The notes beneath the pieces are model-generated. The model did not search any database. It worked only from the letters and a program-made list of their open reading frames with translations, and was not told the origin of the DNA. Made by a program: the position numbers and the translations under genes. A stretch of DNA of 36,653 nt from sequence record SRR31156797_7399, one strand, 5' to 3'. Of this stretch, positions 7,384 through 36,653 are shown piece by piece (position 1 is the first letter of the stretch; every line of letters begins with the position of its first letter).

Positions 7384-7812
7384 ATGAAATTTTCAAAGAA
7401 AACAGAATATGGTTTAAGGTTTTTACTCGCTCTTGCAGAATTAAGTGAGGGGAGGTTTATGGGAATTTATCAAATTTCGTTAAGACACCAGATACCTATG
7501 AAATTTTTGGAAGCTATTGCTGTAGCTCTAAAAAAAGCCGGATTTTTAGATGTGAAAAAAGGAGCTGGAGGTGGTTATCGTTTGAGATTCAGACCAAGTG
7601 AAATAACCCTTTTAATGGTTTTTGAATGTCTTGAGGATGCCTATAAAAGAGAGCTGGATATTTCAGGAGATATATCAAGTAATCAAAAAGCTGTGGCTTT
7701 GGTATTGAATGAATCTATTGCTGGTGTCAGAGAAGTTTTAGCAGAAAAAACGCTGGCCGATATACAAAAGCAATATAAAGACTTGAATGAAAGTTTAATG
7801 TATTATATATAA
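7384..7812 (+). CDS. Rrf2 family transcriptional regulator, CymR-like
   Basis: SKKTEYGLR and KGAGGGYRL wing. Only one Cys, so no IscR Fe-S ligand set. C-terminal LMYYI resembles CymR MFYI. Confidence 0.88.
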   Translation: MKFSKKTEYGLRFLLALAELSEGRFMGIYQISLRHQIPMKFLEAIAVALKKAGFLDVKKGAGGGYRLRFRPSEITLLMVFECLEDAYKRELDISGDISSNQKAVALVLNESIAGVREVLAEKTLADIQKQYKDLNESLMYYI

Positions 7813-7837: not shown

Positions 7838-8953
7838 TTAAACTTTAAATATTCGTATGTTTTCTATTAGTTTAGATGATTGTTTTGAGAGTTGAACTGA
7901 ATTTCCAGACATTTCATCTGCCAATTTAGCATTTGATTGGGTAATTCCGTTAATGTCATTAATAGCCGAAATAATTTGTTCAGAACCAGCTTTTAATTCT
8001 TTGCTGGCTACACTAATTTCAGCCATCAAATTCATGGTTTCGTTCATGCTTGGGATCGTTTCTTCCAGATTTTTACTTACATTTTCGGAAAGAACCTGCC
8101 CATTTGATAATATTTCCTTGATCTCGTTAGATGCTTTTTGACTGTCTTCTGCTAATTTTCTTACCTCACCAGCAACAACATTAAAACCTTTACCAGCCTC
8201 TCCTGCTTGTTTAGCTTCAATTGAAGCATTTAATGCCAGTAAATTGGTTTGACTGGCAATCTCGTCAATGACCTTAATTTTCTCGTTAATTGTTTTCATT
8301 GCCTGCAATAATTCCTGTGCACTTTGATTGCTAATCTCAAGTTTTTGGTTGGTACTTTCGGTATAGCTTTTTGTTTTTTCAGAATTATTGTAAGATGAGT
8401 CTATGTTAGCATTCATTTCCTCCATGGAAGCTGATATTTCTTCAATAGCACTGGCTTGTTCGTTGTTGCCATGGGATAGATTCTGAGACATGTTATTAGT
8501 TTGCTGTCCCATAGAATCTACCTGAGAAGCAGTAGTGTTTATTGTTTTTAGAGACGTGCCAAACATGTCGTTTAGTTTGGTAATGCTAAGACTTAAATCT
8601 TTTAGTTCACCCTTGTAGTTATATTTTTCCTTTTGTTTGTGAGCACTGAAATCGCCTGAAGCAATGATGGCTGTTTTAGAAATGAGCTCTTTCATAGGCC
8701 TTCTAACCCATCTTGATATTAAAAAGAGTAAAATTGCCGTAACGGATAATCCTGAGACAAGAGCTGCAATAAATGGGTATTGATCTGGGTATGCGTAATG
8801 AATTTTACTATTCACTACCGTAAAGAAAACATTGGCTATCCAAACGATGCCAATTCTTAAGAAAATGCTTTTTTTAAATAGAATTCTTAATACAATGCTA
8901 CCAACTATAATAGCTGCAATAAATACAATAAATAAGTTTAAAAAACTTCCCAT
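7838..8953 (-). CDS. Methyl-accepting chemotaxis protein (3 TM, HAMP, signalling domain)
   Basis: [37 protein letters not shown] hairpin tip and [15 protein letters not shown] methylation helix. Start set at ATG 8953 because the ORF-track start overlaps the promoter. Confidence 0.9.
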
Positions 8954-9022
8954 ATTAATTAATCTCTCTCCAGTGAAATTGTAAATGTGTTCTATAACGA
9001 AGCTTGTTGTGCAAATGTTGCA

Positions 9023-9030
9023 CAAATATA
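9023..9030 (-). promoter_or_regulatory. -7 element (TATATTTG) for the MCP gene
   Basis: CAAATATA on + strand. Confidence 0.6.
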
Positions 9031-9408: not shown

Positions 9409-10326
9409 ATGAGTGGAATTGCACAAAATGTAACAGAATTAATTGGTAACACCCCTTTGGTACAAATTAATAGATTAAATGAAGGAGGTGCACAAGTTGT
9501 AGCCAAATTAGAATTTTTTAACCCTGCTAGTTCAGTAAAAGACCGTATTGCTAATGCAATGATTGAAGCAGCTGAAAAAAGTGGAAAACTGGATAAAGAT
9601 ACTGTAATAGTAGAACCAACAAGTGGAAATACAGGAGTAGGGCTTGCTTTTGTAGCCGCTGTAAAAGGATACCGATTAATCTTAACTATGCCTGAGAGTA
9701 TGAGCATCGAACGTAGAAAGTTGTTGAAGAAATTCGGTGCAGAGTTGGTTTTAACTCCTGCCTCTCAAGGTATGAAGGGTGCAATTTCAAAAGCGCAGGA
9801 AATTGCGGAAGAACACGAAAATGCATTTATTCCACAGCAATTTGATAACCCTGCTAACCCAGCTATTCATAAAGTAACAACTGCTGAAGAAATTTGGAAA
9901 GATACAGAGGGAAAGATTGATGTTTTTGTGGCTGGTGTTGGAACCGGAGGAACAATCACAGGAGTCGGAGAGGCATTAAAAGAAAAGAATCCGGATTTAA
10001 AAGTAATTGCTATTGAACCGGCTGATTCTCCTGTTATATCAGGTGGTCAACCTGGGCCTCACAAAATTCAAGGTATTGGAGCCGGATTCATTCCATCAAA
10101 TTTAAATACAGAAGTAATTGATGATGTGGTAAAAGTTTCAAATGAAGATGCCGTTCAAACAAGTCACAAAGCAGCTATTGAAGAAGGTATTTTATGTGGT
10201 TACTCTTCAGGTGCTGCGTTATGGGGAGCATTGGAAGTAGCCAAAAGACCTGAATTCGAAGGGAAACGTATTGTGGTTATTTTACCAGATACAGGCGAAC
10301 GATATTTAAGTAGCTTTGAAATTTAA
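9409..10326 (+). CDS. cysK: Cysteine synthase A (O-acetylserine sulfhydrylase)
   Basis: IGNTPL, SVKDR (PLP Lys), [33 protein letters not shown]. Confidence 0.97.
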
Positions 10327-10513: not shown

Positions 10514-12313
10514 ATGATTCAGGGAATTAAAAATATATTTACGACAGAGCAAGTTGAGCAAGCGCAAAAACTATATGCTTCTTTATCTACAGAGCAAAAG
10601 CTTTGGTTGTCTGGTTATTTGGCAGGTTTAAATCAGTCAGGTGGATTGTTGGAAAGTGATTTGGTTAATGGTGTTAATGGTCAAATAAGTGTAAATTCTG
10701 CCATTGAAAATGAATTAAACCTAACTATTTTATATGGTACTCATACAGGTAATTCAAAAATCTTAGCAGAGCAAACACTTGAAATTGCTCAACAAAGAGG
10801 AATTAAAGCAACAGCTATTAGTTTGCAGGAATATAAAGTACGTAAGTTAAAAGAGGAACAAAACCTACTAGTAATTGTTTCCACCCATGGAGAGGGAGAA
10901 CCTCCTGCATCTGCTGAAGATTTTTATAATTATATATTCGGCAAAAAAGCACCTAAATCGTTGAATGTAAATTATGCTGTAATTGGCTTAGGGGATAGTA
11001 GTTATGCCAAGTTTTGCCAAACAGGGAAAGATATTTATCAGCAAATAGGTGTTTTAGGAGCACAGTCAATTCATGATTTAGTTGAGCTTGACGTTGATTT
11101 TACTGATCAAATTGAAGATATTTTACCAACTATAGTTGATAACTTTCAAAAGGCATCTGGCATTGAGGTTAAGCCTGAACCGGAAAATGTTGCAACAAAG
11201 AAACTTGGCTTAAACGAATGGGTTGAAGTGGAGGTTCTTGAAAAAGTTTTGCTAAACGGTAAAGGGTCCGACAAAGAAACGTATCATATCGAATTAGATA
11301 TTGAGGATGCTGGTCTGGTTTACAAAGCAGGAGATGCATTGGAAGTAGTGGCTGTTAATGATCACGAATTGGTCGACGGAATTTTATCAGTTTTAGATAT
11401 AGATAGAAAAGAAGAAATCTTACAGGGAGAAAAAAATATTACTATCGAAGAGGCTTTAACCTCAAGCTTTGAATTAACAGTAATTACACGACCCGTTATT
11501 ACTAAGTATGCAGAAAGAGCTAAAATTAAAGAATTGGACGATATTATAGGCGATGAGGAACGACTTCAGGAATATTTATATGGAAGAGATATTCTTGATT
11601 TAATTAATGATTTTCCTATTGAGCTTAAAGCAGAGGAATTGGTTCAGTTTTTAAGAAAACTGCCACCAAGGTTGTATTCTATTTCATCCAGTTATGAGTT
11701 AAATCCAGATGAGGTACATATTACGGTTGGAGCAGTGAGGTATAACCTAAACGATCGTGATCATAATGGTGTGTGCTCAGGTTATTTGGCGGATAGTATT
11801 CAGGAAGGATCGACTGTTAAGGTTAGAGTTAAGCCAAATCTTGGCTTTAAATTGCCTGAAGATGAAAAAGCACCAATTGTAATGGTTGGACCGGGAACTG
11901 GAATTGCACCTTTTCGCTCGTTTTTACAGGAGCGCGAAGCTAAAGAGTCGGAAGGTAGAAACTGGTTGTTCTTTGGAGATCAGTATTTTGAAACAGACTT
12001 TTTATATCAAACAGAATTATTACAATATAGGAAAGAAGGATTGGTTAATAAGCTGGATGTTGCATTCTCCAGAGATCAGGAAGAAAAAGTTTATGTACAG
12101 GATAGAATGCAGGAGAATGGTGAGGAACTTTATAACTGGTTAAATGAAGGGGCGCATTTTTACTTGTGTGGTGATATGAAACGAATGGCTAAAGATGTAA
12201 AAGAGACTTTACTACAAATAATTAAACAATACGGCAATTTATCTGAAGAGCAGGCCAATGAATATTTTAAAAACCTAAAGTCGGCAGGACGTTTTCAGGA
12301 GGATGTTTATTAA
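10514..12313 (+). CDS. cysJ: Assimilatory sulfite reductase (NADPH) flavoprotein subunit
   Basis: LWLSGYLAG N-terminus, flavodoxin YGTHTGNS/STHGEGEPP, RLYSISS, GPGTGIAPFR, YLCGD, RFQEDVY. Confidence 0.96.
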   Translation: MIQGIKNIFTTEQVEQAQKLYASLSTEQKLWLSGYLAGLNQSGGLLESDLVNGVNGQISVNSAIENELNLTILYGTHTGNSKILAEQTLEIAQQRGIKATAISLQEYKVRKLKEEQNLLVIVSTHGEGEPPASAEDFYNYIFGKKAPKSLNVNYAVIGLGDSSYAKFCQTGKDIYQQIGVLGAQSIHDLVELDVDFTDQIEDILPTIVDNFQKASGIEVKPEPENVATKKLGLNEWVEVEVLEKVLLNGKGSDKETYHIELDIEDAGLVYKAGDALEVVAVNDHELVDGILSVLDIDRKEEILQGEKNITIEEALTSSFELTVITRPVITKYAERAKIKELDDIIGDEERLQEYLYGRDILDLINDFPIELKAEELVQFLRKLPPRLYSISSSYELNPDEVHITVGAVRYNLNDRDHNGVCSGYLADSIQEGSTVKVRVKPNLGFKLPEDEKAPIVMVGPGTGIAPFRSFLQEREAKESEGRNWLFFGDQYFETDFLYQTELLQYRKEGLVNKLDVAFSRDQEEKVYVQDRMQENGEELYNWLNEGAHFYLCGDMKRMAKDVKETLLQIIKQYGNLSEEQANEYFKNLKSAGRFQEDVY

Positions 12314-12451: not shown

Positions 12452-14164
12452 ATGGCAGAAGTTATCAATAACGAAATATTTCCATCCTGGAATCCATCAG
12501 ATGTAGAAGGGATTAAAATTAGAAGTAATTACTTAAGAGGAACGCTTGAGGAAAGTCTTAACGATTTAGCTACAGGTTCCATAGCTGAAGATGATACGCA
12601 GTTAATTAAATTTCATGGAAGTTATCAGCAAACCGACAGAGATTTGGATATTGAACGCAAACGTCAGAAGCTAGAGCCTTTATACAGTTTTATGATCAGG
12701 GTGAGAATACCGGGAGGTGTAGCTACTGCTGATCAGTGGATTGCTTTCGATGAAATTGCGAAACAGCATAGTAATACATTAAAATTAACCACACGACAGG
12801 CATTTCAGTTTCATGGAGTAATAAAGCGCAATCTAAAAAAAACCATGCAGGGTATAAATGATGCACTCCTTGATTCTATTGCCGCCTGTGGTGATGTTAA
12901 CCGAAATGTGATGTGTACAACCAACGAGGGAATGTCACCACTTGTACCTGCCGCATATCAAATGTCAAAAGATATTAGTGATCACCTGTTGCCTCGTACC
13001 ACAGCCTATCACGAAATCTGGTTAAACCAAAAGTTATTAGTAGATGGAAAGCAGGATGAGGAGCCAATTTACGGTAAAACTTATTTACCTCGTAAATTTA
13101 AAATTGCCATTGCTATTCCTCCGTATAATGACACTGATATTTTTTCGAACGATATAGGTTTGATAGCGATTGGAAAAGGAGATAAACTGGAAGGATTTAA
13201 TATTGCGATCGGAGGAGGATTGGGTATGACATTTACTGAACCCGGAACTTATCCGAGATTAGGCGATGTAGTGGGGTATGCACCTTACGACAAAACACTT
13301 GAAGTTGTAGAAGAGATTGTAAAGCTGCAACGCGATTATGGAAATAGAGAAAATCGTAGAAAAGCAAGATTAAAGTATACAGTGGATCGTTTAGGTCCTG
13401 CTGAGTTTAAAGGTTTGCTTGAGAAACGCTTAGGTTATTCTTTAGAAAAAGCAAAACCATATAAATTCACAAGTAATGGAGATGTTTTTGGTTGGAAAAA
13501 AGCCAAAAACGGAAAGTGGTCATTAGGTCTTTATATCGAACATGGAAGAGTAAAAGATGTTCCGGGTTATGAATTAAAAACAGGTCTTCGTAAAGTGGCT
13601 GATCTAAAGAAATCCGATTTTCGTTTAACAGGAAATCAAGGTCTGGTTATTGGGGGAATTAAGGATGAAGATAAAAAGGAAATTGAAACGATTCTTAAAG
13701 AATACAATATATGGCCTAAAAAGAATTTAAGCGCTGCCCGAAAGCATGCCCTGGCATGTGTGGCGCTCAATACTTGTACTATGGCATTTGCTGAGGCAGA
13801 AAGGTATTTGCCTTCGCTAATGGATAAAATAGAGGTAATTCTGGCCGAAAATGACTTGACCAATGATGATATTCTCATTCGAATGACTGGTTGTCCCAAT
13901 GGATGTGGTAGACCTTTTTTGGGTGAAATAGGTTTTGTGGGGCGTTCCCTAGGGAAATACAATATGTATTTGGGAGCAGGTTTTGCGGGAGAGCGTTTAA
14001 ATACGCTTTACAAAGAAACCTTATCAGAAGAAGAAATTTTGGATGAGTTAAAGGTGCTCTTACCTCGATATGCTAAGGAAAGAGAAAAAGGAGAGCGATT
14101 TGGTGATTTTGTCGGCAGAGTAGGCATTATAGAACATCAAAGAGAGATTCATCAGCTTGATTAG
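12452..14164 (+). CDS. cysI: Assimilatory sulfite reductase hemoprotein subunit
   Basis: IKFHGSYQQ, LTTRQ, ACGDVNRN, YLPRKFK, and siroheme/4Fe-4S ligands CVALNTC and GCPNGC. Confidence 0.96.
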   Translation: MAEVINNEIFPSWNPSDVEGIKIRSNYLRGTLEESLNDLATGSIAEDDTQLIKFHGSYQQTDRDLDIERKRQKLEPLYSFMIRVRIPGGVATADQWIAFDEIAKQHSNTLKLTTRQAFQFHGVIKRNLKKTMQGINDALLDSIAACGDVNRNVMCTTNEGMSPLVPAAYQMSKDISDHLLPRTTAYHEIWLNQKLLVDGKQDEEPIYGKTYLPRKFKIAIAIPPYNDTDIFSNDIGLIAIGKGDKLEGFNIAIGGGLGMTFTEPGTYPRLGDVVGYAPYDKTLEVVEEIVKLQRDYGNRENRRKARLKYTVDRLGPAEFKGLLEKRLGYSLEKAKPYKFTSNGDVFGWKKAKNGKWSLGLYIEHGRVKDVPGYELKTGLRKVADLKKSDFRLTGNQGLVIGGIKDEDKKEIETILKEYNIWPKKNLSAARKHALACVALNTCTMAFAEAERYLPSLMDKIEVILAENDLTNDDILIRMTGCPNGCGRPFLGEIGFVGRSLGKYNMYLGAGFAGERLNTLYKETLSEEEILDELKVLLPRYAKEREKGERFGDFVGRVGIIEHQREIHQLD

Positions 14165-14188: not shown

Positions 14189-14419
14189 ATGCAAGAAAAA
14201 AGATATAGAACCTTATTAAAAACAATTTCGTGGAGAGCGACAGGTACGCTCGACACGTTTTTGATATCCTATCTGATTACAGGAAAAATAGGATTGGCAG
14301 CTTCCATCAGTGGAGTTGAGGTTTTTACAAAAATGATATTGTATTATTTCCACGAAAGAGCCTGGAACAAAATTAAGTACGGTAAGGAAAAGCCCAAGCA
14401 ACCTGAATATTATATTTAA
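14189..14419 (+). CDS. DUF2061 family small membrane protein
   Basis: R...KTISWR..GTLDT...TG....A.SI...E..TK..LYYFHERAW signature. C-terminal tail PEYYI. Confidence 0.88.
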   Translation: MQEKRYRTLLKTISWRATGTLDTFLISYLITGKIGLAASISGVEVFTKMILYYFHERAWNKIKYGKEKPKQPEYYI

Positions 14420-14505: not shown

Positions 14506-16269
14506 ATGTCGAAGATTATGGAAAGAATTAACATAGGTATACATGATAATCAGGAAAGATTAGTGACTAAAAACTGGTTAGAAGATATGTTGTCGATGCA
14601 TAATCTAAACATTGAATTTACAGTTTTTAATCAAGCTAAGGGCAGGCAAATTGCCTTAGAAGACAATGAGATAGTTCGTGATCAGTTAGTTGATGCAGTT
14701 ATATCTCAGGATATTGATGCTTATATTATTTCGGCAGATGAATTGCCCTATCCTTTGGATGCTGAGCTGGAAGTATATGCAGTATATGCCAAAGAAAAAG
14801 TATCTGAAGATCAGGTTTCAGAACATCCATTGAATCCATATTGGGCTATAGTAGGCAAAAAGGGAAGTTCGGAATTAAAAACTACATTTGAAAAAAATGA
14901 TGTTCGCGAAAAGTGGGGTTATGTGGTATTAGCTGGTTTTGGTCCTGGAGATCATCGTTTAATTACTCGTAAAGCAGAGTTTCACTTGCATAAAGCAGAA
15001 GTTATTTTTTATGATGATTTGGTAAATGATGAGTTTTTAAGACGTTTCTGTGCTAAAAAAATCTATGTTGGAAAGCGTAAAGGAAGACATAAATTCGATC
15101 AGGAGAAGATTAATGAATTAATGTATCAGGAAGCTTTAAAAGGTAAATGGGTTGTGCGTATCAAGGGCGGTGATCCTCTTATTTTTGGAAGAGGAGCCGA
15201 GGAATATCATTATTTACAAAGTCGATTAATTAAATCGGAAATTATTCCTGGTATTTCAAGTGCCTTTGCAGCTGCTGCAGGAGCGGTTATTCCTTTTACA
15301 GAAAGGTCATTAGCTTCATCGGTGGCGTTTTTATCGGGTCATGATTTGCATAAAATAAAAATACCTCAAGCAGATACCTTGGTTTTCTTTATGGGTGCAT
15401 CTAATCAGCAAGAGTTAGCTCAGAAAATTATTGATGAAGGTTGGGAGGAAGCGACTCCGGTTGGGGTGGTGCATAATGCATCTACACCGGAGCAACAAAT
15501 ATATCGTGGAAATCTGGAGGAATTAAGAGATAAAGGTTCAGGTTTGCCCTCACCATCCATCATTATTGTGGGTAAAACAGCAGGTGAATATGTTGGTAAA
15601 AATGGTAAGTGGTTATATACAGGAGCTTCTTTGGATGAGGTGAAATCCACAGTTCATTTAGTGCATACGCCATTAATTTCTATTGAAAGTATAGAAGATA
15701 CGGTACAAGTTGAACAATTTATAAATAATATATCCAATTATAATCGAATTGTATTCACCAACCGTTATGCAGTACAGCACTTCTTTAAGCATTTATATAG
15801 CTTAGGGAAAGATGCACGTAGTTTATGGAATATTACCATCGATTCTATTGGGAAAACTACTTCAAAAGCTTTGCGTCAACACGGTATTGTTACAGAACCT
15901 GTTGGTAAAAAAGAATCACTATCGGCCATGTTACAAGCCTACCAGGAAAATAAAGTGGCAGGAGAAAAAATATTGGTACCTGGTTCAAGTTTATCGACCG
16001 GAGATTTGCAGAGTGGGCTTGTAGAATTGGGTAACAAGGTAGATTCTTTGTGGGTTTATAATGTGGTGAAGAATAAAGCGATAATAAAGCAGAATTTATC
16101 ACGTTTCGAGGGAATTATTTTCTCATCACCAGCAACCGTAAAAGCATTTTTTGAAGTTTACGAGGAGATTCCTTCACATGTAAAAGTAAAATGCAGAGGA
16201 GCGCAGACAGAGAAGACTCTAAAGGCTGTGCTTAATGATTTCAGTAATGATACTTTAAGAGCTGTGTAA
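14506..16269 (+). CDS. cobA: Uroporphyrinogen-III C-methyltransferase / uroporphyrinogen-III synthase fusion with degenerate N-terminal HemC-like domain
   Basis: CobA motifs GFGPGD, YDDLV, YVGKR, RIKGGDPLIFGRG, PGISS. HemD-like IVFTN..AV..FF, IGKTT..AL, FSSPATV. The first ~135 aa resemble HemC domain 1. Confidence 0.9.
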   Translation: MSKIMERINIGIHDNQERLVTKNWLEDMLSMHNLNIEFTVFNQAKGRQIALEDNEIVRDQLVDAVISQDIDAYIISADELPYPLDAELEVYAVYAKEKVSEDQVSEHPLNPYWAIVGKKGSSELKTTFEKNDVREKWGYVVLAGFGPGDHRLITRKAEFHLHKAEVIFYDDLVNDEFLRRFCAKKIYVGKRKGRHKFDQEKINELMYQEALKGKWVVRIKGGDPLIFGRGAEEYHYLQSRLIKSEIIPGISSAFAAAAGAVIPFTERSLASSVAFLSGHDLHKIKIPQADTLVFFMGASNQQELAQKIIDEGWEEATPVGVVHNASTPEQQIYRGNLEELRDKGSGLPSPSIIIVGKTAGEYVGKNGKWLYTGASLDEVKSTVHLVHTPLISIESIEDTVQVEQFINNISNYNRIVFTNRYAVQHFFKHLYSLGKDARSLWNITIDSIGKTTSKALRQHGIVTEPVGKKESLSAMLQAYQENKVAGEKILVPGSSLSTGDLQSGLVELGNKVDSLWVYNVVKNKAIIKQNLSRFEGIIFSSPATVKAFFEVYEEIPSHVKVKCRGAQTEKTLKAVLNDFSNDTLRAV

Positions 16270-16373: not shown

Positions 16374-17366
16374 ATGTTTAAAAGATTCAGACAATTCAGG
16401 TTAAGTCCTGAAATAAGAGATAATCATGCAGATGTATCGGTGCATTCTCGTGATTTTATATATCCGTATTATGTAGTTAGTGGTGATTCCCGAAAGGAAA
16501 GCATTCCGAATTTAAAAGATGTATATCGTTTTTCATCGGATTTACTGTTACAGGATTTAGAAGAAACGGTTAGTTTGGGTATCAATAAAATAATATTGTA
16601 TGGACAGGCAGATGATAAAGATAAAACTAAGGATGGCTTAGGCGCTTTTAAGCACAATAATCTGATTGAACAGACTTTGAAAAAGATAAAAAATCAATTC
16701 CCTGAAATTACTGTTATTACTGATGTTTGTACTTGTGCTTATACAAACCATGGGCACTGTGGAGTGTTGAATGGATTAACCGTGGATAATGATAGATCTA
16801 TAGAAGTGCTGGCTAAAATTGCGGAAAGTCATGCCAGAGCAGGAGCGGATATAGTAGCGCCTTCGGCAAGAATGGATGGTCAGGTACAGGCCATTCGTCA
16901 GCGATTGGATGCAAGGCGCTTTAAGAATGTTCAGATAGCTTCTTTTGCAGCCAAGTATTCATCTTCGTTTTATGCTACTTTAAAAGATAAGACCAGTCAT
17001 ACAATCTCTTTTGGAGACAGACGTAATTATTGGATTGATTACCGAACTAAGGAGCAGGGGTTAGATCATATCAGTACAGATATAGAGGAAGGATCTGATT
17101 GGATTTTTGTGCAGCCGGCACAATCTTATCTCGATATTATATCTCGGGCTAAGATTAAACATCCTAAAACACCGATTGGTGCATTTCAGGTATTTGGAGA
17201 ATATGCTATGTTGGTTAATGCTGCAGAGCAAGGAATAGTTGACTTAAAGGCTTCAATGTTAGAGTCATTTACGGCTATAAAAAGATCAGGAGCCAATTAT
17301 ATTATATCCTATTATGCCAAAGAAATGGCGCGGTATTTAAATGGAGATGGATACTATGTGATTTAG
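16374..17366 (+). CDS. hemB: Porphobilinogen synthase (HemB)-like protein, probably catalytically impaired
   Basis: Retains Zn site DVCTCAYTNHGHCG, AGADIVAPS.RMDG and AKYSSSFY. However, VQP replaces VKP and QVFGEY replaces QVSGEY. Confidence 0.85.
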   Translation: MFKRFRQFRLSPEIRDNHADVSVHSRDFIYPYYVVSGDSRKESIPNLKDVYRFSSDLLLQDLEETVSLGINKIILYGQADDKDKTKDGLGAFKHNNLIEQTLKKIKNQFPEITVITDVCTCAYTNHGHCGVLNGLTVDNDRSIEVLAKIAESHARAGADIVAPSARMDGQVQAIRQRLDARRFKNVQIASFAAKYSSSFYATLKDKTSHTISFGDRRNYWIDYRTKEQGLDHISTDIEEGSDWIFVQPAQSYLDIISRAKIKHPKTPIGAFQVFGEYAMLVNAAEQGIVDLKASMLESFTAIKRSGANYIISYYAKEMARYLNGDGYYVI

Positions 17367-17385
17367 TATCACAATAATTATATGC

Positions 17386-17423
17386 AAAAAAGGCCACTAG
17401 TTCAACTAGTGGCCTTTATATTT
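17386..17423. terminator. Bidirectional intrinsic terminator between hemB-like and cold-shock genes
   Basis: AAAGGCCACTAGTT-C-AACTAGTGGCCTTT perfect inverted repeat with A and T flanks. Confidence 0.85.
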
Positions 17424-18344: not shown

Positions 18345-20324
18345 TTATCGAATGATGTTTACTTTACCTCTAAAGATAATATAATTATGTTCATTTTTCA
18401 ATATGATCGTATATAATCCTACGGAAATATTAGGAATTGAAATAAGTTGATTTTTATTCCCTTGTATACTTTGTTTATGTATAGTATTTCCACTGATATC
18501 AACAAGGAACAAAGTAAGTGCACCTTCATTTAAAGTAGATAGATCGATATTGAATTTACCCTTATTGGGATTTGGGTATACACTTATTGCAGTATTGTTA
18601 TTTGATGATAAGGATGTGGAGTAATCGTATGATAAATTCCAATCGTAGGTTTTATTCACTGCTTTTTCTCCAAGCCATCTTATATAGATAGTTTCTCCAT
18701 CCGCAATGGCATAGCTCAACTGAGTCTGAAAGCCACACTCATCATCTGCAGATTCAATGAGTGTATTGCAGTCGTTGTAAATTTCTAACTTAGTATCAAA
18801 TTCAGTTAAATCGCAGCTTTTAATCATCAGAATTTCATCTTCAGAAGAAGTGTATTCGTACCATTGATCATAGTCACTGGTGTGAGTAGTGGTATTATCT
18901 CCTAAATTACAAGTTAATGCCTGTGTACACTCTTCGCCAGGATTTAAATCCTCTCGATTTAAATTCCAATTGTAGGTGCCAGAAGTATATGTTTTTTTCC
19001 ATCTGATATAGTACGTTTCATTGGAATATACTTGAAATGTTGCAGATTCTTGTGTACTACATGAATTGTTAATTTGCAGATAAACAGATTCGTTGCAGCC
19101 TTTGTAAATTTCAAGGCTGGTGTTTTCTGAGGTTAAACCACAGCTAGATACAGTTACTCTTCCATTAGATTCTGGTGTGTAGGCAAACCATTGATCATAT
19201 CCGCTTGAGTGATCACAACTATTGGATCCTTCAATGGCGGTATAAGCTGATTCACAATAATATCCTTCTGTGTCTTCATTTTCTGTTAGAGTCCAGTTGT
19301 ATGATCCGGATGTATAGGTGTTGCTCCATTTTATATAGTAAGTTTCGCCTTGTGTACATGAGAAAGCAAGCTGAGACTGTGTAGAACAAAAATCGTTGTT
19401 TGCGCTTAATAAGGTGTTGCAATCCTCATATACTTCTACATAAGTATCTTCACTGGTCTGAGAACAAGATGAAACAATAATTTCTCCGGTAACATTTGCT
19501 GTATAAGCAAACCATTGGTTTACACCGGTACTGTGGTCGCATTGGTTGGTACCTATTGTTGCAATAAACGGATCGTCACAAAAGTCACCTTGCTCCGTTA
19601 AATCATCGGTCAAAATCCAATTATAGCTACCTGAGATATTATTGCTTTTCCATCTTATTAAATAGGTATTCCCGGCTGTAGTTTCAATAATTAATGATGA
19701 TTGATAATTACAGCTATTATTATTAAAATCAATCGGGTATCCATCGCAAGAATTATAAACCTCAACAAAGGTATCTTCAGTGGTTTGATCACATGTAGTT
19801 AATTTTAATTTACCGGTATTGACAGCCGTGTAGGTATACCATTGGTCAGCACCGGAACTGTGGTCAGCCAAATTACTACCAATGATTGCTGATTTGGGAT
19901 CATCGCAAAAGTCACCTTGTTTAGCAGCGTCTTCTGTTAACGTCCAGTTGTAGGCTTTATTTGTACTTGTAATACTAATGCGCCAACGAATGTAATAAGT
20001 ACTTCCTGTTGTACATTGAAAAACAACCTGAGATTGTGAATTACAATAATTATCATTAGATACTAATGGAATACTAACTCCACAAGCTGTATAAACCTGA
20101 ACATTTGTGTCTTCAGTTGTTGCACCACAATTAGAAATAGTGATCTTTCCATTCATGGTAGCAGTATATGTAAACCATTGTTCAATATCACCAGTATGAT
20201 CACTGGTGTTAGTTGATACTGATATTTCATTGGCAGCTACAGCTTCAGAACAACTGCTGCCACCTTGGGCAAAGACTTGACTCCCACTAAGGGATATCAA
20301 AAGAATGAGCAATAAATTTCTCAT
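18345..20324 (-). CDS. T9SS type A sorting domain protein with five Cys-containing ~109-aa repeats
   Basis: Signal peptide, five G..C..A...DH....QW..Y...C..T.EDT...Y..C...C..Q...TY.I.W...Y.W units, and CTD VYPNP...ISG...GLY...KV.IIR. Confidence 0.85.
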   Translation of the reverse strand: MRNLLLILLISLSGSQVFAQGGSSCSEAVAANEISVSTNTSDHTGDIEQWFTYTATMNGKITISNCGATTEDTNVQVYTACGVSIPLVSNDNYCNSQSQVVFQCTTGSTYYIRWRISITSTNKAYNWTLTEDAAKQGDFCDDPKSAIIGSNLADHSSGADQWYTYTAVNTGKLKLTTCDQTTEDTFVEVYNSCDGYPIDFNNNSCNYQSSLIIETTAGNTYLIRWKSNNISGSYNWILTDDLTEQGDFCDDPFIATIGTNQCDHSTGVNQWFAYTANVTGEIIVSSCSQTSEDTYVEVYEDCNTLLSANNDFCSTQSQLAFSCTQGETYYIKWSNTYTSGSYNWTLTENEDTEGYYCESAYTAIEGSNSCDHSSGYDQWFAYTPESNGRVTVSSCGLTSENTSLEIYKGCNESVYLQINNSCSTQESATFQVYSNETYYIRWKKTYTSGTYNWNLNREDLNPGEECTQALTCNLGDNTTTHTSDYDQWYEYTSSEDEILMIKSCDLTEFDTKLEIYNDCNTLIESADDECGFQTQLSYAIADGETIYIRWLGEKAVNKTYDWNLSYDYSTSLSSNNNTAISVYPNPNKGKFNIDLSTLNEGALTLFLVDISGNTIHKQSIQGNKNQLISIPNISVGLYTIILKNEHNYIIFRGKVNIIR

Positions 20325-29822: not shown

Positions 29823-32800
29823 ATGCGTGCTTTATTACATTATAGTGGCATTGTATTATTGTTGCTCATTACAATAGGTGTTCAGGCTCAGCCAGATAAA
29901 ATATACTGGTTTGCAGCTCCTGATGTGAGTGATGTCCATGGAGATGGTCCTGCTATATTCAGAATTTCCACATACGAAACAGGAGCAAATGTAAGTATAT
30001 TTATTCCTGCCGAAAATAACCGGATATTAAGTCAGTTTAATGTCAAGCCTTTTTCTCAGTATAAAGTAGAATTGGATCCATTTACAGTAGAAAATTCACC
30101 AGCTAATAGCATAAATAATAAAGGAATATGTATCGTATCTGATGCTGAAGTCTCTGTTTATTATGAGGTGAGCAATCCTGACAATGCCGAAAAATTTATC
30201 CTGAAAGGAGATAATGCACTGGGAAAGTGGTTTTTTATTCCTTCTCAAACCGCTTATGGCAATTATCAAACTAATGGAAGTACAGCAAGCGAAAAGGCTG
30301 ATATTGTTGCAACAGAGGATCAAACATCAATTGAAATAATACCATCTGTTGATATTATCGGACATCAGGCGAATATTCCTTTTGAGATAGTGCTTAATAA
30401 AGGGCAAACATACTGTATTGAATGTGCCGATATTTCTGCAGAGGGAGCTTTGGCCGGAACGGAAATTAAAGCAAACAAACGCATAGCGGTGACTATTTCG
30501 GATGATGCGGTAATGGAAGATCCCGGAAGTAATCCAAATGATCTGATAGGAGACCAGTTAATTCCGGTAAATGCTCTTGGTCAGGAATATGTAGCTATTA
30601 ATACCAGTAAGGCACCTTCTAGTTTTAAAAATACCAATACTGTTCAAAAGGTATATGTTTTAGCTATTGAAGACAATACAATGGTATTCCTGAATAATAC
30701 GTCAAAAACTGCAAAACTTTTACAGAAGGGTGAAACAGCTGAATTTGATTTTTCGGACCATGCTGCATTTATTTATGCCACTAAAAAAGTTTATGCCTAT
30801 CAGATAACCGGATTAGTGAATAATGCAAAAAGTGCTGCTAACGAATTAGGTTCTGCCATATTACCCAGGTATTATTGTAATGGATCTTCCAGAGTTTCTG
30901 TTACAAGAGTCTTCGATAGAGACTTTTGGGTGAATATTGTAGTAAAACGAAAGGATATTAAGTCTTTTGTTTTTAAAGATAGTCAGGGTTATGAGTTGAG
31001 TTTGAAAAAATATATGAACAGCTGGCAAACAGTTCCTGGGCAATTAACCGGTCAAGATTCATGGGTGTGTTGTGCTGCCAATTTAAATGATCTAACAACA
31101 GGAACACCTTATTTTATTGAAAACACTTCCGGCGTTTTTCATTTATGTGTGCTCGACGAAAATGGTCTGAATGAAGAATCCGGATGTAGCAGTTTCGGAT
31201 ATCTAAGTAGTTATAATTCGTTTTGGGTAGATGGCCAACAAGAGGCTTGCAGAGGAAATGTTATTCCCCTGACAGCAAAAGGAGGATTTAGTAATTACAA
31301 ATGGTATTCTGATATTTCAGGATCAGAGGTGCTTTCTACGAGCTCTGAGTTAGCTGTAACAGAATCCGGTAAATACTATGTGGATGCGATAAATGATGAG
31401 GGTTGTATTTTTTCAGATACCATTGATGTCAATTTTATGTTGCCTGTAGTTGAATTAGGTAATGATACCACTATTTGTCAAGGTGAGAATCTGGATTACC
31501 TGCTTGATAATAATTACAGTAGTTATAGTTGGAGTAATGGTGCATCAGATTCTTCAACGCAAGTTAATACGCAGAATGCAGGTTCATTTATGTTGGGTGT
31601 TGAAGTTGCGGATGAATATGGATGTACAAATAACGATTCGGTACTGATTACAGTGTCAGAAGTGCCGGGAATTAAAATAAATAAAACGGAGGTTTGTGAA
31701 GGTGGTTTAGTTGTGTGCGAATCAGTTTTTGAGCGGTATGAATGGAGATTTGGAGGGGAATTAATAAATCAGAATGCTGCTCAAAGCTGGATTAAGCCTG
31801 AGGAATCAGGAGAGTATTCTATTAGTGGGTGGACGGATGATGGTTGTGTTGTATCTAGTGTTGTAAACTTATCTGTCCACCCCTTACCTCAATTTGAGTT
31901 TAAAAATCAATTTGCTTGCCAGGGAGACACCGTTGTGATTGAAGCACCTAAAAGTTTTGAGACTTATTTATGGAGTGACGGTTCTTCTTCACCTCAACTA
32001 GAATTGAATGATGACGATAATTACTGGCTGGAAGCTACGGATGAAAAGGGTTGTGTTTATCGCAATGGTGCTTCAATTACTTTTTATAAGCCTCTCGCAT
32101 TGGATTTAGGTCCTGATAGAGAGGAGTGCGAAGGAGTCTCGATATATATTGCTGCAGATTCAGCGTATTCAAATTACAATTGGTCTTTTATATCAGACGG
32201 AGATGTTGCCAGTCAGGAGATGCTGAATAAAGATTCGGATTACCGGATAGAAAGAGCTGGAGTAAACCATAGTGGATTATATCGTTTAGAAGCTATGGAT
32301 AAAAATGGCTGTATGGTTCACGATGAGGTAAACCTGAATATTATGCCTTCAGATTCATTGACCTTATCTGTGACTCAAAATTTATGTGAAGGTCAAACGG
32401 TGGATTTAATGGCTTCTGCAGGATATGAGAACTATGTATGGTATAAAGATAATGAACTCTTAAGCGAATATGAAAATACAAATCAAATATTAAATATTGA
32501 AAATGCAGGAGTTTATCGGGTTGAGGCCAGTTCGGGCGTTTGTATGCAGACAACTGAGATAGTAGTTGCAAGCCATTCCTTACCGGAAGTACAATTGGAG
32601 GCTGATGTAAGCTTGTGCGGAGATGAATCCAAAGAAATTAGTATAAATAGTTATCATTCTTCAAGTGGAGCAGACCTAGATTATTTATTCTGGAATGAAA
32701 AAGAAGATGTTCGTTTCAGTAATTGGCAAACGTCTTCCTTAGAAGTTTCACAGGCAGGAATATATAAGGTTACTGTTGTGGATGAATTTGGATGTAGAGC

Positions 32801-35800
32801 GATGGATACCATTCATGTTACACAATATATGCCTGAAATAGTTGAATTGGGGCCAGATGTCAATCGTTGTGAAAGGGAGGAGATTAGAATTGAGAATCCA
32901 GTTTCGGATGCCATCAGCTATAATTGGTATTTGCTATCTGATACCGACCGAGAAATAGTAACTCAGAACAATCCGATAGAAATCCTTCAGTCTGGAATCT
33001 ATGAATTGGAAATTATAGATGCTCATGGTTGTCTTTCATCGGATCAGGTACTTGTTCATTTCAATTCCAATCCTTCAGTTAGGATTGTAGGAGAAAATGA
33101 GGCTTGTGGGAGTACTTTGCTGGAGGTGGTTAGTGATCTGGATGATGTTGATGTAGTCTGGAATCATACACCAGGAATGAATTCTGCTCAAATAAAAGTG
33201 AATTCATCAGGAACTTATAGTGTAGTTGTAACAGATGCCAATGGCTGTTCAAGTCTGGATTCTGTCTCTGTGCTTATTCATGATATTCCACAAGTAAATT
33301 TAACTGATCTATCAGCATGTGAAGGTGATACCATATGGAGAAGCGGACCTGATGGATTTATTACTTATGAATGGAGTAATGGATCAACTTCAAAAGATAT
33401 TCAAATTCTGAATAGTGGGAATTATGAACTTACAGTTACAGATCAGAATGGTTGTTCCGGTACAAATGATATGCAGGTTTCTTTTATTCGTCCGGTTCCT
33501 TTAGAATTGGGGCCTGATAGGGATGAATGTGAGGGGAGTCTGGTTGAAATTAGAGCAAATTCACAGCATACAGCCTATCAGTGGTATTTTTTACCTAAGG
33601 CAAGTCCAGATCTAAAAAGTACCTTATTGAGTAATGCAACACAGTCATATCGTATCGAGAGTGGTTTAATAGCCAATAGTGGTATTTATTCGCTGGAAGC
33701 GCAGGATGAGAATGGTTGTTTAGTTCGGGATGAAGTATCGGTTAGCTTTTATGAAGTTAGCCCGGAAACTTCAACGATGACAGAATACATCTGTGTGGGT
33801 GATACATTTAACGTTTCTGGCCCGGAAGGGTATGATACCTATACGTGGTATATCGATGGCACTGTTACAGATTCAACTTTTGATGTATCACAACTAGAAG
33901 GTATTACAACGGAAGGAGTGTATCGAGTTGAAGCATCAATAGGAGCTTGTGTTAAAACCAATAATATTGAAATTGTCAGGCAGGTTTCACCTACTGTTAC
34001 GCTGGCGGATTTAGTTTGGTTGTGTCCGGGAGGTCAAGTTGATGTTACGGTAGAAAATTTTTACTCCAACAATAGTCAATTGGATTATTTGTATTGGAAT
34101 GATAATACGCAAGAAAGAATTAATGATTGGCAAACTGCCAAATTAGAAGTGGGAGAAGCTGGTGAGTATAGTGTTACTGCCGTTGATGAGTTTGGATGTA
34201 TGGCCAACGACACTATTGAGGTGTTAAAAAGTCTTGTGCCTGATTTAGTAGTAAATGAATCAGAGGCATGTCCGCATCAGGAGCTTACATTTTCGATAGA
34301 TGACCGTTTTACTTCTTACGCATGGAGTAATGGTGATAATGATCATACAACCGTTGTAAATACAGGGAATGAGGAATATATTCAGTTGGAAGTAGAAGTG
34401 CTTGACAATAAAGGTTGTGTTATAAAAGATACCATCGGAATTACCGTTTTTAATAATCCACAAATTGAATTGTCACAAACGGTTGTATGCGAAGGTTCTT
34501 ACATTGAAAATATGACTTCTTTTGAAAGGTATGAATGGATGTTTAATGATACAGTTCTTAATATTAAAGAAAGTCAAAATTGGATTATTCCAAAGAAATC
34601 AGGTGATTATAAAGTGATGGCATGGACTGCTTCTGGTTGTGCTGTAACGAAGGATTTTTCGGTTACAGTTCATGCATTACCGCAAATGAGTCTGGATAAT
34701 AAGCAGGCCTGTGAGGGTGATACTATTCAGATAAAAGCACCATTAGACTTTGAAACATATCAATGGAGTACGGGTGAAAATAGCGAAGCGATACATATAA
34801 ATTCAGATACCAATTATTGGCTTCAGGTTACAGATAAATACGGTTGCGTTGGTCGTGCGGAAGCTTTGGTAACATTTATACAGCCCATGGAAATTGATTT
34901 AGGTCCAGATAGAAATGAGTGTGTTGGTATTGATGTAAACCTACAGGCTAATGCCTTGTATTCAGCACACGAATGGTACTTTGAACCGTTAGAACATAAA
35001 GATGAGGTACAGTATTTGAATCAACCAGGTAGTTCCTTTCAAATATTGAATGGTTCAAAATCAAATAGTGGACTTTATACAGTAGAGGCTTTAGATGTAA
35101 ATGGTTGTGCTGTTAAAGATGAAGTCCTGGTTAAATTTTACCAGGTAAATCCACCTCAACTAAAAATGGAAGAACATTTGTGTCCGGCTGAAGATATTGT
35201 TATTTCAGCTACAGAGGGTTATGACTCTTATACCTGGTACTATAATGAGCAATCTATCTCAACTGCAAATAATCAACCCGATTTACGAGGAATCAATACG
35301 CCCGGTCTTTATAAAGTAGAAGTGACTTCTGGTAAATGTTCTAATTCCAAAGAAATTGAAGTAGTGCAACATCAGGCTCCATCTGTAAGTTTATCGGATG
35401 ATTTTTCTCTTTGCAAGAAAGAGGATGGCATTATTTCTATAAACAAATATTTTTCTGAGGAAAACGCAGCATTGAGTTACTATTTCTGGAATAATAATCC
35501 TCAGATTCGATTGCGCGATTGGCAGAGTTCTGGTTTATCTGTATTTCAAGCAGGTACTTATGGGGTAACAGTTGTTGATGAAAATGGCTGTTCTGCAAGC
35601 GATGAAGTGCTTATTACAAATTATCCTGAGCTAGAGTTTGATTTAGGTGACCCTATCTCTATTTGTCCTGGAACCAGTGTGCATATTGAATCACCTGTGG
35701 ATAGTTCAAATCAATGGAATTGGTTTAATAGATTACAATCATCAGATCAAGTATTAACCAACAATTCCGATTTGGAAATTAGTGATGGAGGGGAATATAT

Positions 35801-36653
35801 ACTAAAAGTAGAAGATATTTATGGATGTATAACGCAGGACACTTTGATTGTAAATATGTTCAAAGAACCTCAGGTTCATATTGAAGGAAATACCTTCGCG
35901 TGTGGACAAACAAGCCTTTACTTAAATGCCGACGGTGAAAATTACACATATCGATGGAATGATTCTCCTGAATTGAATACCTACAGTTTGAATGTAAGCA
36001 ATTCTGGAACGTTTAAAGTAGATATTTGGGATGCAAAAGGTTGTCATAATTCAGACCAGGTTGAAGTACAAATTTATCCTTTGCCGAAACTGGACATGCT
36101 GAATGATACAGTATGCGCCGGACAAAAAGGTATGCTTAGTGCACCTTCAGGGGAGTATAATTATCTGTGGAGTAATGGTGAAAAAACTTCCAGTATTTCA
36201 GTCTGGGATGGAAATTACACCTTGAAATTAACCGACAAATTTGGTTGTGAAAGTGAAGGAAAAGCTTCTGTTATATGGCGATCTTTACCTAAAGTAGATT
36301 TAGGGCCAGACTTGGTTCTTTGTCCTTTGGAACAAAGGCAGTTGGATGCAGGTCCGGATTATTCGTCTTATCAATGGCATAATGGTTCTTCTTCAGAAAC
36401 AATAATAGCCAGTTTATTGGATACGGTAAACCAGGTTTTTGTCACCGATAAATATGGATGTACCGGTTTTGATACGCAAACAACAAAGTTTAAGGTGGCT
36501 CCTGAAATAGATCTTTGTTCAGATACTTCTGTTTGTAAGCATGAAATAACAATACTCGATGCAGGTGCTGGTTTTGATGAATATTTGTGGAATGATGGAG
36601 ATCAAAATCAAATCAAGGAAATATCCGAGCCAGGAATGTATTGGATAAATGTA
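29823..36653 (+). CDS. Very large secreted protein (>2277 aa, 3'-truncated): IgGFc-binding-like N-terminal domain plus ~24 Cys-paired Ig/PKD-like modules; probable T9SS/SprB-like cargo
   Basis: ATG 29823 begins MRALLHYSGIVLLLLITIGVQAQPDKIYWFAAP, followed by VSVYYEV, KGDNALG, IVATEDQT, GDQLIP, SFGYLSSY, then repeated L G.D...C.G...Y.W...G.Y...D..GC modules. Spot-checked motifs all fall in the same frame through the last codon (36651-36653). It is presumably absent from the ORF track because no stop is reached. Confidence 0.88.
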   Translation, partial: MRALLHYSGIVLLLLITIGVQAQPDKIYWFAAPDVSDVHGDGPAIFRISTYETGANVSIFIPAENNRILSQFNVKPFSQYKVELDPFTVENSPANSINNKGICIVSDAEVSVYYEVSNPDNAEKFILKGDNALGKWFFIPSQTAYGNYQTNGSTASEKADIVATEDQTSIEIIPSVDIIGHQANIPFEIVLNKGQTYCIECADISAEGALAGTEIKANKRIAVTISDDAVMEDPGSNPNDLIGDQLIPVNALGQEYVAINTSKAPSSFKNTNTVQKVYVLAIEDNTMVFLNNTSKTAKLLQKGETAEFDFSDHAAFIYATKKVYAYQITGLVNNAKSAANELGSAILPRYYCNGSSRVSVTRVFDRDFWVNIVVKRKDIKSFVFKDSQGYELSLKKYMNSWQTVPGQLTGQDSWVCCAANLNDLTTGTPYFIENTSGVFHLCVLDENGLNEESGCSSFGYLSSYNSFWVDGQQEACRGNVIPLTAKGGFSNYKWYSDISGSEVLSTSSELAVTESGKYYVDAINDEGCIFSDTIDVNFMLPVVELGNDTTICQGENLDYLLDNNYSSYSWSNGASDSSTQVNTQNAGSFMLGVEVADEYGCTNNDSVLITVSEVPGIKINKTEVCEGGLVVCESVFERYEWRFGGELINQNAAQSWIKPEESGEYSISGWTDDGCVVSSVVNLSVHPLPQFEFKNQFACQGDTVVIEAPKSFETYLWSDGSSSPQLELNDDDNYWLEATDEKGCVYRNGASITFYKPLALDLGPDREECEGVSIYIAADSAYSNYNWSFISDGDVASQEMLNKDSDYRIERAGVNHSGLYRLEAMDKNGCMVHDEVNLNIMPSDSLTLSVTQNLCEGQTVDLMASAGYENYVWYKDNELLSEYENTNQILNIENAGVYRVEASSGVCMQTTEIVVASHSLPEVQLEADVSLCGDESKEISINSYHSSSGADLDYLFWNEKEDVRFSNWQTSSLEVSQAGIYKVTVVDEFGCRAMDTIHVTQYMPEIVELGPDVNRCEREEIRIENPVSDAISYNWYLLSDTDREIVTQNNPIEILQSGIYELEIIDAHGCLSSDQVLVHFNSNPSVRIVGENEACGSTLLEVVSDLDDVDVVWNHTPGMNSAQIKVNSSGTYSVVVTDANGCSSLDSVSVLIHDIPQVNLTDLSACEGDTIWRSGPDGFITYEWSNGSTSKDIQILNSGNYELTVTDQNGCSGTNDMQVSFIRPVPLELGPDRDECEGSLVEIRANSQHTAYQWYFLPKASPDLKSTLLSNATQSYRIESGLIANSGIYSLEAQDENGCLVRDEVSVSFYEVSPETSTMTEYICVGDTFNVSGPEGYDTYTWYIDGTVTDSTFDVSQLEGITTEGVYRVEASIGACVKTNNIEIVRQVSPTVTLADLVWLCPGGQVDVTVENFYSNNSQLDYLYWNDNTQERINDWQTAKLEVGEAGEYSVTAVDEFGCMANDTIEVLKSLVPDLVVNESEACPHQELTFSIDDRFTSYAWSNGDNDHTTVVNTGNEEYIQLEVEVLDNKGCVIKDTIGITVFNNPQIELSQTVVCEGSYIENMTSFERYEWMFNDTVLNIKESQNWIIPKKSGDYKVMAWTASGCAVTKDFSVTVHALPQMSLDNKQACEGDTIQIKAPLDFETYQWSTGENSEAIHINSDTNYWLQVTDKYGCVGRAEALVTFIQPMEIDLGPDRNECVGIDVNLQANALYSAHEWYFEPLEHKDEVQYLNQPGSSFQILNGSKSNSGLYTVEALDVNGCAVKDEVLVKFYQVNPPQLKMEEHLCPAEDIVISATEGYDSYTWYYNEQSISTANNQPDLRGINTPGLYKVEVTSGKCSNSKEIEVVQHQAPSVSLSDDFSLCKKEDGIISINKYFSEENAALSYYFWNNNPQIRLRDWQSSGLSVFQAGTYGVTVVDENGCSASDEVLITNYPELEFDLGDPISICPGTSVHIESPVDSSNQWNWFNRLQSSDQVLTNNSDLEISDGGEYILKVEDIYGCITQDTLIVNMFKEPQVHIEGNTFACGQTSLYLNADGENYTYRWNDSPELNTYSLNVSNSGTFKVDIWDAKGCHNSDQVEVQIYPLPKLDMLNDTVCAGQKGMLSAPSGEYNYLWSNGEKTSSISVWDGNYTLKLTDKFGCESEGKASVIWRSLPKVDLGPDLVLCPLEQRQLDAGPDYSSYQWHNGSSSETIIASLLDTVNQVFVTDKYGCTGFDTQTTKFKVAPEIDLCSDTSVCKHEITILDAGAGFDEYLWNDGDQNQIKEISEPGMYWINV
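31450..36290 (+). repeat. Higher-order protein repeat: ~1395-bp six-module units, ~2793-bp A-B period
   Basis: GPDR.EC at 32109, 33510 and 34902. FERYEW at 31728 and 34521. FETY.WS at 31956 and 34749. Confidence 0.8.

Follow-up and report, generated by a model that had tools for sequence, protein, structure and literature searches.

This analysis concerns a 36,653-nucleotide stretch of DNA from sequence record SRR31156797_7399 (hereafter the window, position 1 being its first letter) and, within it, the gene at 16374-17366 on the plus strand, the last of a cysK-cysJ-cysI operon for making cysteine from sulfate. Its product is a homologue of porphobilinogen synthase (HemB, or ALAD) that is very probably a pseudoenzyme. 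There is good reason to think that this pseudoenzyme has been maintained for a function, and it is likely to carry out that function through a short docking tail newly gained at its C-terminus. The partner of the tail is proposed more tentatively: it may be CysK, the cysteine synthase encoded by the first gene of the same operon, a possibility that we hold to be somewhat short of probable.

Family identity and active site of the HemB-like protein

The reading frame is unbroken and codes for 330 residues. In profile searches, Pfam ALAD (PF00490) covers residues 3-320 with 361.8 bits against a cut-off of 24.6, and the NCBIfam porphobilinogen synthase profile NF006762 scores 364.1 bits against a cut-off of 297. 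The closest solved structures are ALADs (5lzl, E 2.7e-75; 1w1z; 1w5q), and a monomer model gives a confident barrel, with a mean predicted local distance difference test score (pLDDT) of 89.6 and a predicted template modelling score (pTM) of 0.89. The full-length, uninterrupted HemB homologue of the preliminary description is thus borne out from end to end. Both the fold and the N-terminal oligomerisation arm are kept, and 10 of the first 15 residues are invariant in the clade of tailed relatives described below.

Active-site positions were located by alignment to the three solved ALADs and to 94 other HemB homologues. They are given here with the gene itself and its tail.

16374-17366, plus strand: HemB-like gene, probable pseudoenzyme; 330 residues plus stop, last gene of the operon
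16728-16760, plus strand: Zn-site cysteines C119, C121 and C129, kept here and lost in four to six of 13 clade members
16953-16955, plus strand: K194, codon AAG, first Schiff-base Lys (AKY motif), kept
16968-16985, plus strand: degenerate active-site lid F199-Y-A-T-L-K204 (canonical FYGPFR); residues 201-220 of low pLDDT
17031-17033, plus strand: W220, codon TGG (canonical Gln of YQ)
17112-17114, plus strand: Q247, codon CAG, in place of the second Schiff-base Lys (VQP for VKP)
17193-17195, plus strand: F274, codon TTT (canonical Ser of VSGEY)
17340-17363, plus strand: tail codons N323-G-D-G-Y-Y-V-I330; five residues invariant, synonymous codon variation, low pLDDT at 326-330

With Zn-dependent porphobilinogen synthases the protein shares its full-length match, the modelled barrel, the N-terminal arm, K194 and the Zn-binding cysteine triad, which is retained in the motif D117-V-C119-T-C121...H128-C129-G. 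It differs from them in lacking the second Schiff-base Lys (V246-Q247-P for VKP), the lid Arg, the Gln of YQ (Y219-W220) and the Ser of VSGEY (Q272-V-F274-G-E-Y for QVSGEY), in carrying a conserved eight-residue tail, and in that the nearest genome encodes a separate canonical HemB. The second Schiff-base Lys is presumably the P-side one, and the lid Arg, the Gln and the Ser are residues that we take to bind the substrate carboxylates. The lid region itself (201-220) is poorly modelled, with block mean pLDDT values of 57 and 69. The preliminary description had reported a kept Zn site and K194, a Lys-to-Gln exchange at residue 247, and YATLK, YW and FQVFGEY in place of the canonical motifs; the alignment agrees with each of these, as does the codon at 247, and the residues replaced are present in all 82 untailed HemBs.

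Those 82 sequences (40 of housekeeping type and 42 of operon type) belong to a set of 95 distinct HemB homologues across which eight catalytic residues were scored, namely C119, C121, C129, K194, R204, Q220, K247 and S274. At least one of the eight is missing from every tailed protein (13 of 13) and from no untailed one; position 247 is Lys in 82 of 82. A sequencing error or a mutation of a single strain, the case in which orthologues would all retain VKP, was ruled out, because a separate assembly carries identical CAG, TTT and TGG codons. This assembly, G001, is the nearest genome to the window (50% of sampled words in common), and its copy of the gene differs at 24 of 990 bases and is 98% identical as a protein.

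Within the tailed clade, catalytic residues were lost in different combinations. K247 is retained in five of the 13 members and is otherwise Q, T or A in separate branches, K194 has become V or I in two (P0007 and P0008), Zn cysteines have been lost from four to six (including P0009, P0010, P0012 and the G216 copy), and the lid Arg survives in only three. This branch-by-branch pattern indicates that no active-site chemistry is common to the clade. By profile score the window protein would be placed in the ALAD family, and by its aligned residues it departs from the catalytic pattern of that family at the second Lys, the lid Arg, the Gln and the Ser. Public records nevertheless label tailed-clade genes 'porphobilinogen synthase'. 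With these four residues missing, annotation as a working enzyme is unwarranted, and the label would falsely credit a genome with a functional HemB.

Origin, redundancy and selection

A search of 5.8 billion proteins recovered about ten clusters of proteins 325-330 residues long that cover 100% of the query, tail included, at 55-98% identity; two of these clusters bear the source names Labilibacter sediminis and Saccharicrinis aurantiacus. With the copies found in genomes added, the clusters give the 13 distinct tailed sequences. A maximum-likelihood tree was built from 47 of the 95 homologues (13 tailed, 20 of operon type and 14 of housekeeping type), after the tailed sequences had been trimmed by ten residues at the C-terminus (the tail and two residues before it). 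In this tree the tailed sequences form a single clade, with a Shimodaira-Hasegawa-like approximate likelihood ratio test (SH-aLRT) value of 99, nested within the operon-type HemBs; the smallest supported group to enclose it (SH-aLRT 95) also contains four untailed HemBs, including those of G195 and G204, two genomes of the same family as the carriers. The tail thus arose once. Recent horizontal import was considered and ruled out, as the clade branches from within operon-type HemBs that come from the same family and occupy the same operon position. Outside the tail, 12 positions are fixed only in the tailed clade, seven of them as Lys or Arg (R26, R40, K86, K93, R155, R181 and K262). The preliminary description had anticipated a clade sharing both the Lys-to-Gln exchange and the tail. 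The tailed clade was found, but the exchange does not mark it, given the members that keep K247; its hallmarks are the tail and a lid that no longer reads FYGPFR.

The nearest relatives of the tailed proteins, at 47-56% identity, are operon-type canonical HemBs of Bacteroidales and Marinilabiliaceae, which are encoded in a cobA/hemD-hemB module. Both kinds of gene occupy the slot after the (HemC-)CobA-HemD fusion, and in some genomes the canonical genes do so within the same cys operon; the canonical proteins differ in keeping all catalytic motifs, in being tailless, and in being the sole HemB match found in their own genomes. The operon of G195, for example, encodes CysJ, CysI, a DUF2061 protein, a sirC-like NAD-binding protein, HemA, a full HemC-CobA-HemD triple fusion of 663 residues, a canonical HemB and HemL. 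These genes together span the whole path from glutamyl-tRNA to siroheme, and G195 has no HemB match other than the operon hemB. The cys operon of the window lineage is without hemA, hemL and the sirC-like gene. In G001, a canonical hemB lies apart from the cys operon in a hemC-hemD-hemB-hemL cluster, so that the second canonical copy sought in the preliminary description does exist in the nearest genome, and a canonical hemB was also found in the four other carrier genomes. Of 121 genomes searched in the family, 79 gave a HemB match, and only the five carriers of the tailed gene combine a housekeeping-type HemB with a relative of operon type.

The simplest reading of the tree and the residue pattern would be that the tail was gained once, after redundancy had relaxed the catalytic constraint on the operon hemB, and that catalytic residues were lost piecemeal later. 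Different fates under redundancy can be seen together at this locus: hemA and hemL have disappeared, HemC is reduced to a fast-drifting stub, and HemB has been lost or re-used. Two genomes show other arrangements. G221 carries two HemBs of housekeeping type (37% and 35% identical to the query; C2:883728-884696) and lacks a tailed copy. In G192, the operon-type hemB (L067 9617-10571), the sole HemB match in the genome, gives two separate matches that lie in different frames (residues 2-77 and 65-319), which may reflect a frameshift or an assembly error.

Selection on the gene was estimated as the ratio of nonsynonymous to synonymous substitution (dN/dS) by the Nei-Gojobori method (NG86). Only two unsaturated pairs were relied on; distant pairs were left aside because their dS was saturated (2 or more, or undefined). 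Between the window and G001 copies (24 differences, dS 0.096) dN/dS is 0.067, and between those of G152 and G252 (51 differences, dS 0.24) it is 0.038. For the operon neighbours, the window-G001 comparison gives 0.021 for CysI, 0.036 for CysK, 0.095 for CobA-HemD and 0.118 for CysJ. Reading frames are intact in all 13 tailed sequences. The HemB-like frame is thus under strong purifying selection despite its catalytic losses. It does evolve faster than its housekeeping counterpart, with 57-80% identity against 85-91% in the same genomes (closest pair excluded), a divergence that resembles that of CysJ; the HemC remnant of the same operon has drifted further, to 27-41% identity across the genus, where the HemB-like protein stays at 57-70%. 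The preliminary description had inferred repurposing rather than decay and proposed dN/dS as a check. Both ratios lie far from 1, and together with the tailed clade and the canonical hemB of G001 they support that inference.

The HemB-like gene is present in five of the 23 species genomes of the genus, and in an order-level sample of 151 genomes the tailed gene occurs in G001 only. The operon was examined in four non-carriers (G221, G202, G210 and G234). In the first three, 87-270 bases separate cobA/hemD from a convergent cold-shock-domain gene and the HemB-like gene is cleanly absent; in G234, the same slot holds about 2.3 kb in which no similarity to HemB was found. The stretch in G210 contains cysK and cobA/hemD without cysJ, cysI and the DUF2061 gene, cysI lying elsewhere on the contig. 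As the HemB-like gene is missing from 18 of the 23 genomes, its function is dispensable, and the protein serves an accessory function. G216 departs from the other carriers (L066 9286-9479): its HemB-like gene directly follows the DUF2061 gene, its operon contains no cobA/hemD, and its only separate CobA-like gene is located elsewhere. In no other copy is the active site as degenerate as in that of G216, which has lost the Zn cysteines and has Thr for K247.

The C-terminal tail and its candidate partners

Compared with its closest untailed relatives, the chain is longer by 7-8 residues at its C-terminus (NGDGYYVI), which confirms the extension of about eight residues reported in the preliminary description. 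HemB C-termini differ in length generally, and the extension by itself is ordinary; its conservation is what stands out. All 13 distinct tailed sequences end in N-G-D-x-[YF]-[YF]-V-I followed by the stop codon, with N323, G324, D325, V329 and I330 invariant, and in each of them I330 directly precedes the stop and therefore bears the free C-terminal carboxylate. Between genomes, the invariant residues are encoded by different synonymous codons (AAT/AAC, GTG/GTA, ATT/ATA). In the monomer model, residues 326-330 have pLDDT values below 50. A scan for the back-translated tail motif across one genome per species (185,579 species) gave 20 matches, five of which end a long open reading frame, and these five are the HemB-like genes of G001, G152, G216, G249 and G252. 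The remaining 15 are chance matches (short open reading frames, or TGG at the stop position), and a metagenome scan for the motif gave 27 matches, none coding for a HemB-like protein. The tail is probably a protein-docking module.

The tail has its closest parallel in peptides that plug the active site of CysK. In the serine acetyltransferase (SAT) CysE, the C-terminal tail is described as occupying the CysK active site, with the conserved C-terminal Ile as an essential anchor (PMC9547175). Unrelated proteins are reported to recruit CysK as well: the toxin domain CdiA-CT likewise requires its C-terminal Ile for CysK binding, CymR of Bacillus is named as a CysK partner, and the moonlighting partners of CysK are said usually to end in Ile (PMC4961446). 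In a plant SAT the end is DYVI, a peptide reported to inhibit Leishmania and Arabidopsis cysteine synthases at 4-8 uM, compared with 1.5-2 mM for GSGI (PMC3388911). An invariant free Ile preceded by aromatics and an acidic residue marks such peptides. The organism's own CysE is always Ile-ended, with E-G-[GSA]-G-I at its C-terminus in 10 of 10 genus genomes examined, carriers and non-carriers alike, and the [YF][YF]VI end of the HemB-like protein is closer to plant DYVI than to this G-x-G-I. The cysK gene stands in the operon of the window and of all four carrier genomes whose contig extends that far. Its product is of the CysK isoform (TIGR01139, 471.3 bits against a cut-off of 350.95) and lies near solved CysKs such as 2q3b, 2isq, 1y7l and 5j43, entries with bound peptides or partners among them.

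The tail thus shares with that of CysE in the cysteine synthase complex an invariant final Ile and an upstream acidic residue, in addition to its close likeness to the plant DYVI end and its encoding in an operon with a CysK-type enzyme, and it may likewise be flexible. It differs in that its carrier is a dead TIM-barrel enzyme and not an acetyltransferase, and in that the organism's own CysE ends in G-x-G-I. The preliminary description had named an oligomeric scaffold, a ligand sensor and a dominant regulatory subunit as putative roles; it had also listed CysK among proteins that might co-purify, which agrees well with the sequence of the tail. The non-SAT clients CdiA-CT (UPEC536) and CymR offer a precedent for CysK recruitment by unrelated proteins; these are a toxin domain and a transcription factor, whereas the putative client considered here is a pseudoenzyme of tetrapyrrole origin.

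In the mechanism proposed, the ancestor would have been the porphobilinogen synthase of a self-contained siroheme branch inside the cysK-cysJ-cysI operon, and its descendant would be non-catalytic. Were the descendant still to form a HemB-type oligomer, it would display several flexible tails. Each tail would imitate the SAT C-terminus, the terminal Ile carboxylate and the preceding aromatics entering the CysK active site. A second complex of the cysteine-synthase type could thereby form, in competition with CysE and responsive to O-acetylserine and sulfide. Extended in this way, with the HemB-derived oligomer as a multivalent SAT-tail decoy that captures CysK dimers and operon expression thereby tied to CysK/CysE control, the proposal is more speculative than CysK docking itself and should be regarded as doubtful. 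If it were true, no pseudo-porphobilinogen synthase would precede this one, and CysK clients would gain a new class. Binding to CysK would enlarge the small set of CysK clients by a metabolic pseudoenzyme and would point to a further level of regulation of cysteine synthesis in marine Bacteroidota. No maintained lineage of dead HemBs and no HemB-CysK link was found in literature searches, some of them aimed at this question, that covered few subscription journals.

Several observations weigh against this proposal or against parts of it. Untailed canonical hemB genes also occur in cysK-cysJ-cysI operons (G192 and G195), so that synteny does not discriminate, and the identity of CysE tails in carriers and non-carriers gives no sign of co-adaptation. 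The tail extends only about eight residues past the last helix, and the physiological sense of co-expressing CysK with a plug for its own active site is unclear. The cited peptide affinities come from plant and Leishmania enzymes, which are distant. The 12 newly conserved positions outside the tail might instead belong to another interface or to the binding of an anionic ligand. The 18 genomes without the HemB-like gene keep the rest of the operon, and the evidence for a canonical hemB comes from G001 and other relatives and not from the window's own genome. A complex prediction with two CysK chains, two pyridoxal phosphates (PLP) and residues 297-330 of the HemB-like protein, run with no controls, scored 0.21 and 0.13 against a mark of 0.34 and counts neither for nor against.

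The dead HemB could instead partner tetrapyrrole or siroheme enzymes in a structural or regulatory role, with the tail serving that contact. Possible tasks would be the binding or delivery of an anionic tetrapyrrole for CysI, the stabilisation of an enzyme of the siroheme branch, or the formation of mixed oligomers with the housekeeping HemB, the last being unlikely because the two are only 36% identical. Descent from the HemB of a siroheme operon, the gene's continued position after cobA/hemD and cysI, and the seven newly conserved Lys/Arg residues, which would suit an acidic ligand or partner, speak for such a role. We consider it unlikely, as G216 keeps gene and tail without a cobA/hemD fusion in the operon, which argues against the CobA-HemD fusion as the tail's partner, and as the clade shares no conserved set of pocket residues.

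The tail might also act within its own protein, as an oligomer lock, by folding back over the degenerate active site, or as a signal for stability or degradation. Terminal segments are needed for the assembly of HemB enzymes into oligomers, and the conserved N-terminal arm and the hydrophobic character of the tail fit a role of this kind. The monomer model leaves the tail unplaced, with contacts in an oligomer still allowed for, and an invariant Ile with a free carboxylate would go unexplained. An intramolecular role is for these reasons rather improbable.

A lower probability still attaches to the protein having remained an enzyme, either as a weak porphobilinogen synthase or with a new activity that uses the Zn site and K194. 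The window protein does keep its three Zn cysteines and K194, and four tailed members (P0003, P0004, P0005 and the G252 copy) retain both lysines, YQ and SGEY. Other members have lost K194 or the Zn cysteines yet keep the tail and an intact frame, which leaves no chemistry common to the clade, and both lysines are described as forming catalytically essential Schiff bases in porphobilinogen synthase (PMC6262466). That the gene is a functionless relic heading for loss, made redundant by the housekeeping hem cluster, is very improbable: the losses of the gene across most of the genus, of hemA, hemL and the sirC-like gene from the same operon and of most of the HemC domain would fit such a fate, as would a nonsynonymous divergence 2-3 times as large as the housekeeping HemB shows in these genomes, but two independent recent pairs give dN/dS values of 0.04-0.07, none of the 13 frames is broken, and a new segment was gained and then held invariant amid synonymous variation.

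The operon and its surroundings

The other features of the locus, most of them assigned by profile match, are as follows.

7384-7812, plus strand: Rrf2-family regulator at the head of the locus; best specific NCBIfam match CymR, 62.6 bits, below the cut-off of 195
9409-10326, plus strand: cysK, cysteine synthase A, proposed partner of the tail
10514-12313, plus strand: cysJ, sulfite reductase flavoprotein
12452-14164, plus strand: cysI, sulfite reductase haemoprotein (siroheme enzyme)
14189-14419, plus strand: small predicted membrane protein of family DUF2061, conserved in the operon
14506-16269, plus strand: fusion of a HemC remnant (residues 1-135), CobA (uroporphyrinogen-III methyltransferase) and HemD
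17389-17417, plus strand: terminator-like hairpin of 13 pairs followed by a T-rich run, just 3' of the HemB-like stop codon and facing a convergent cold-shock-domain gene

The hairpin after the stop codon indicates that the HemB-like gene closes a predicted unit that starts with cysK. The DUF2061 protein sits between cysI and cobA/hemD in most operons examined, including that of the sister lineage G195. In the 587-residue fusion, residues 1-135 (14506-14910) are a weak porphobilinogen deaminase remnant (PF01379, E 0.013, 15.5 bits, below the cut-off), and the CobA-HemD body holds 60-68% identity across the genus, compared with the much lower values given above for the remnant.

Between the Rrf2 regulator and cysK, a 395-residue protein with a methyl-accepting chemotaxis signalling domain is encoded on the minus strand (7838-9025); such a protein is found at the same spot in most genus loci examined, with or without the HemB-like gene. 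Beyond the operon, the minus strand encodes a 659-residue protein (18345-20324) with about five internal repeats of some 110 residues, each with conserved Cys and a Y-N-W-x-L motif, together with a probable signal peptide and a C-terminal sorting domain; it adjoins the locus also in G001, G249 and G221. Finally, an open frame of more than 2277 residues (29823-36653, plus strand) runs off the end of the window.

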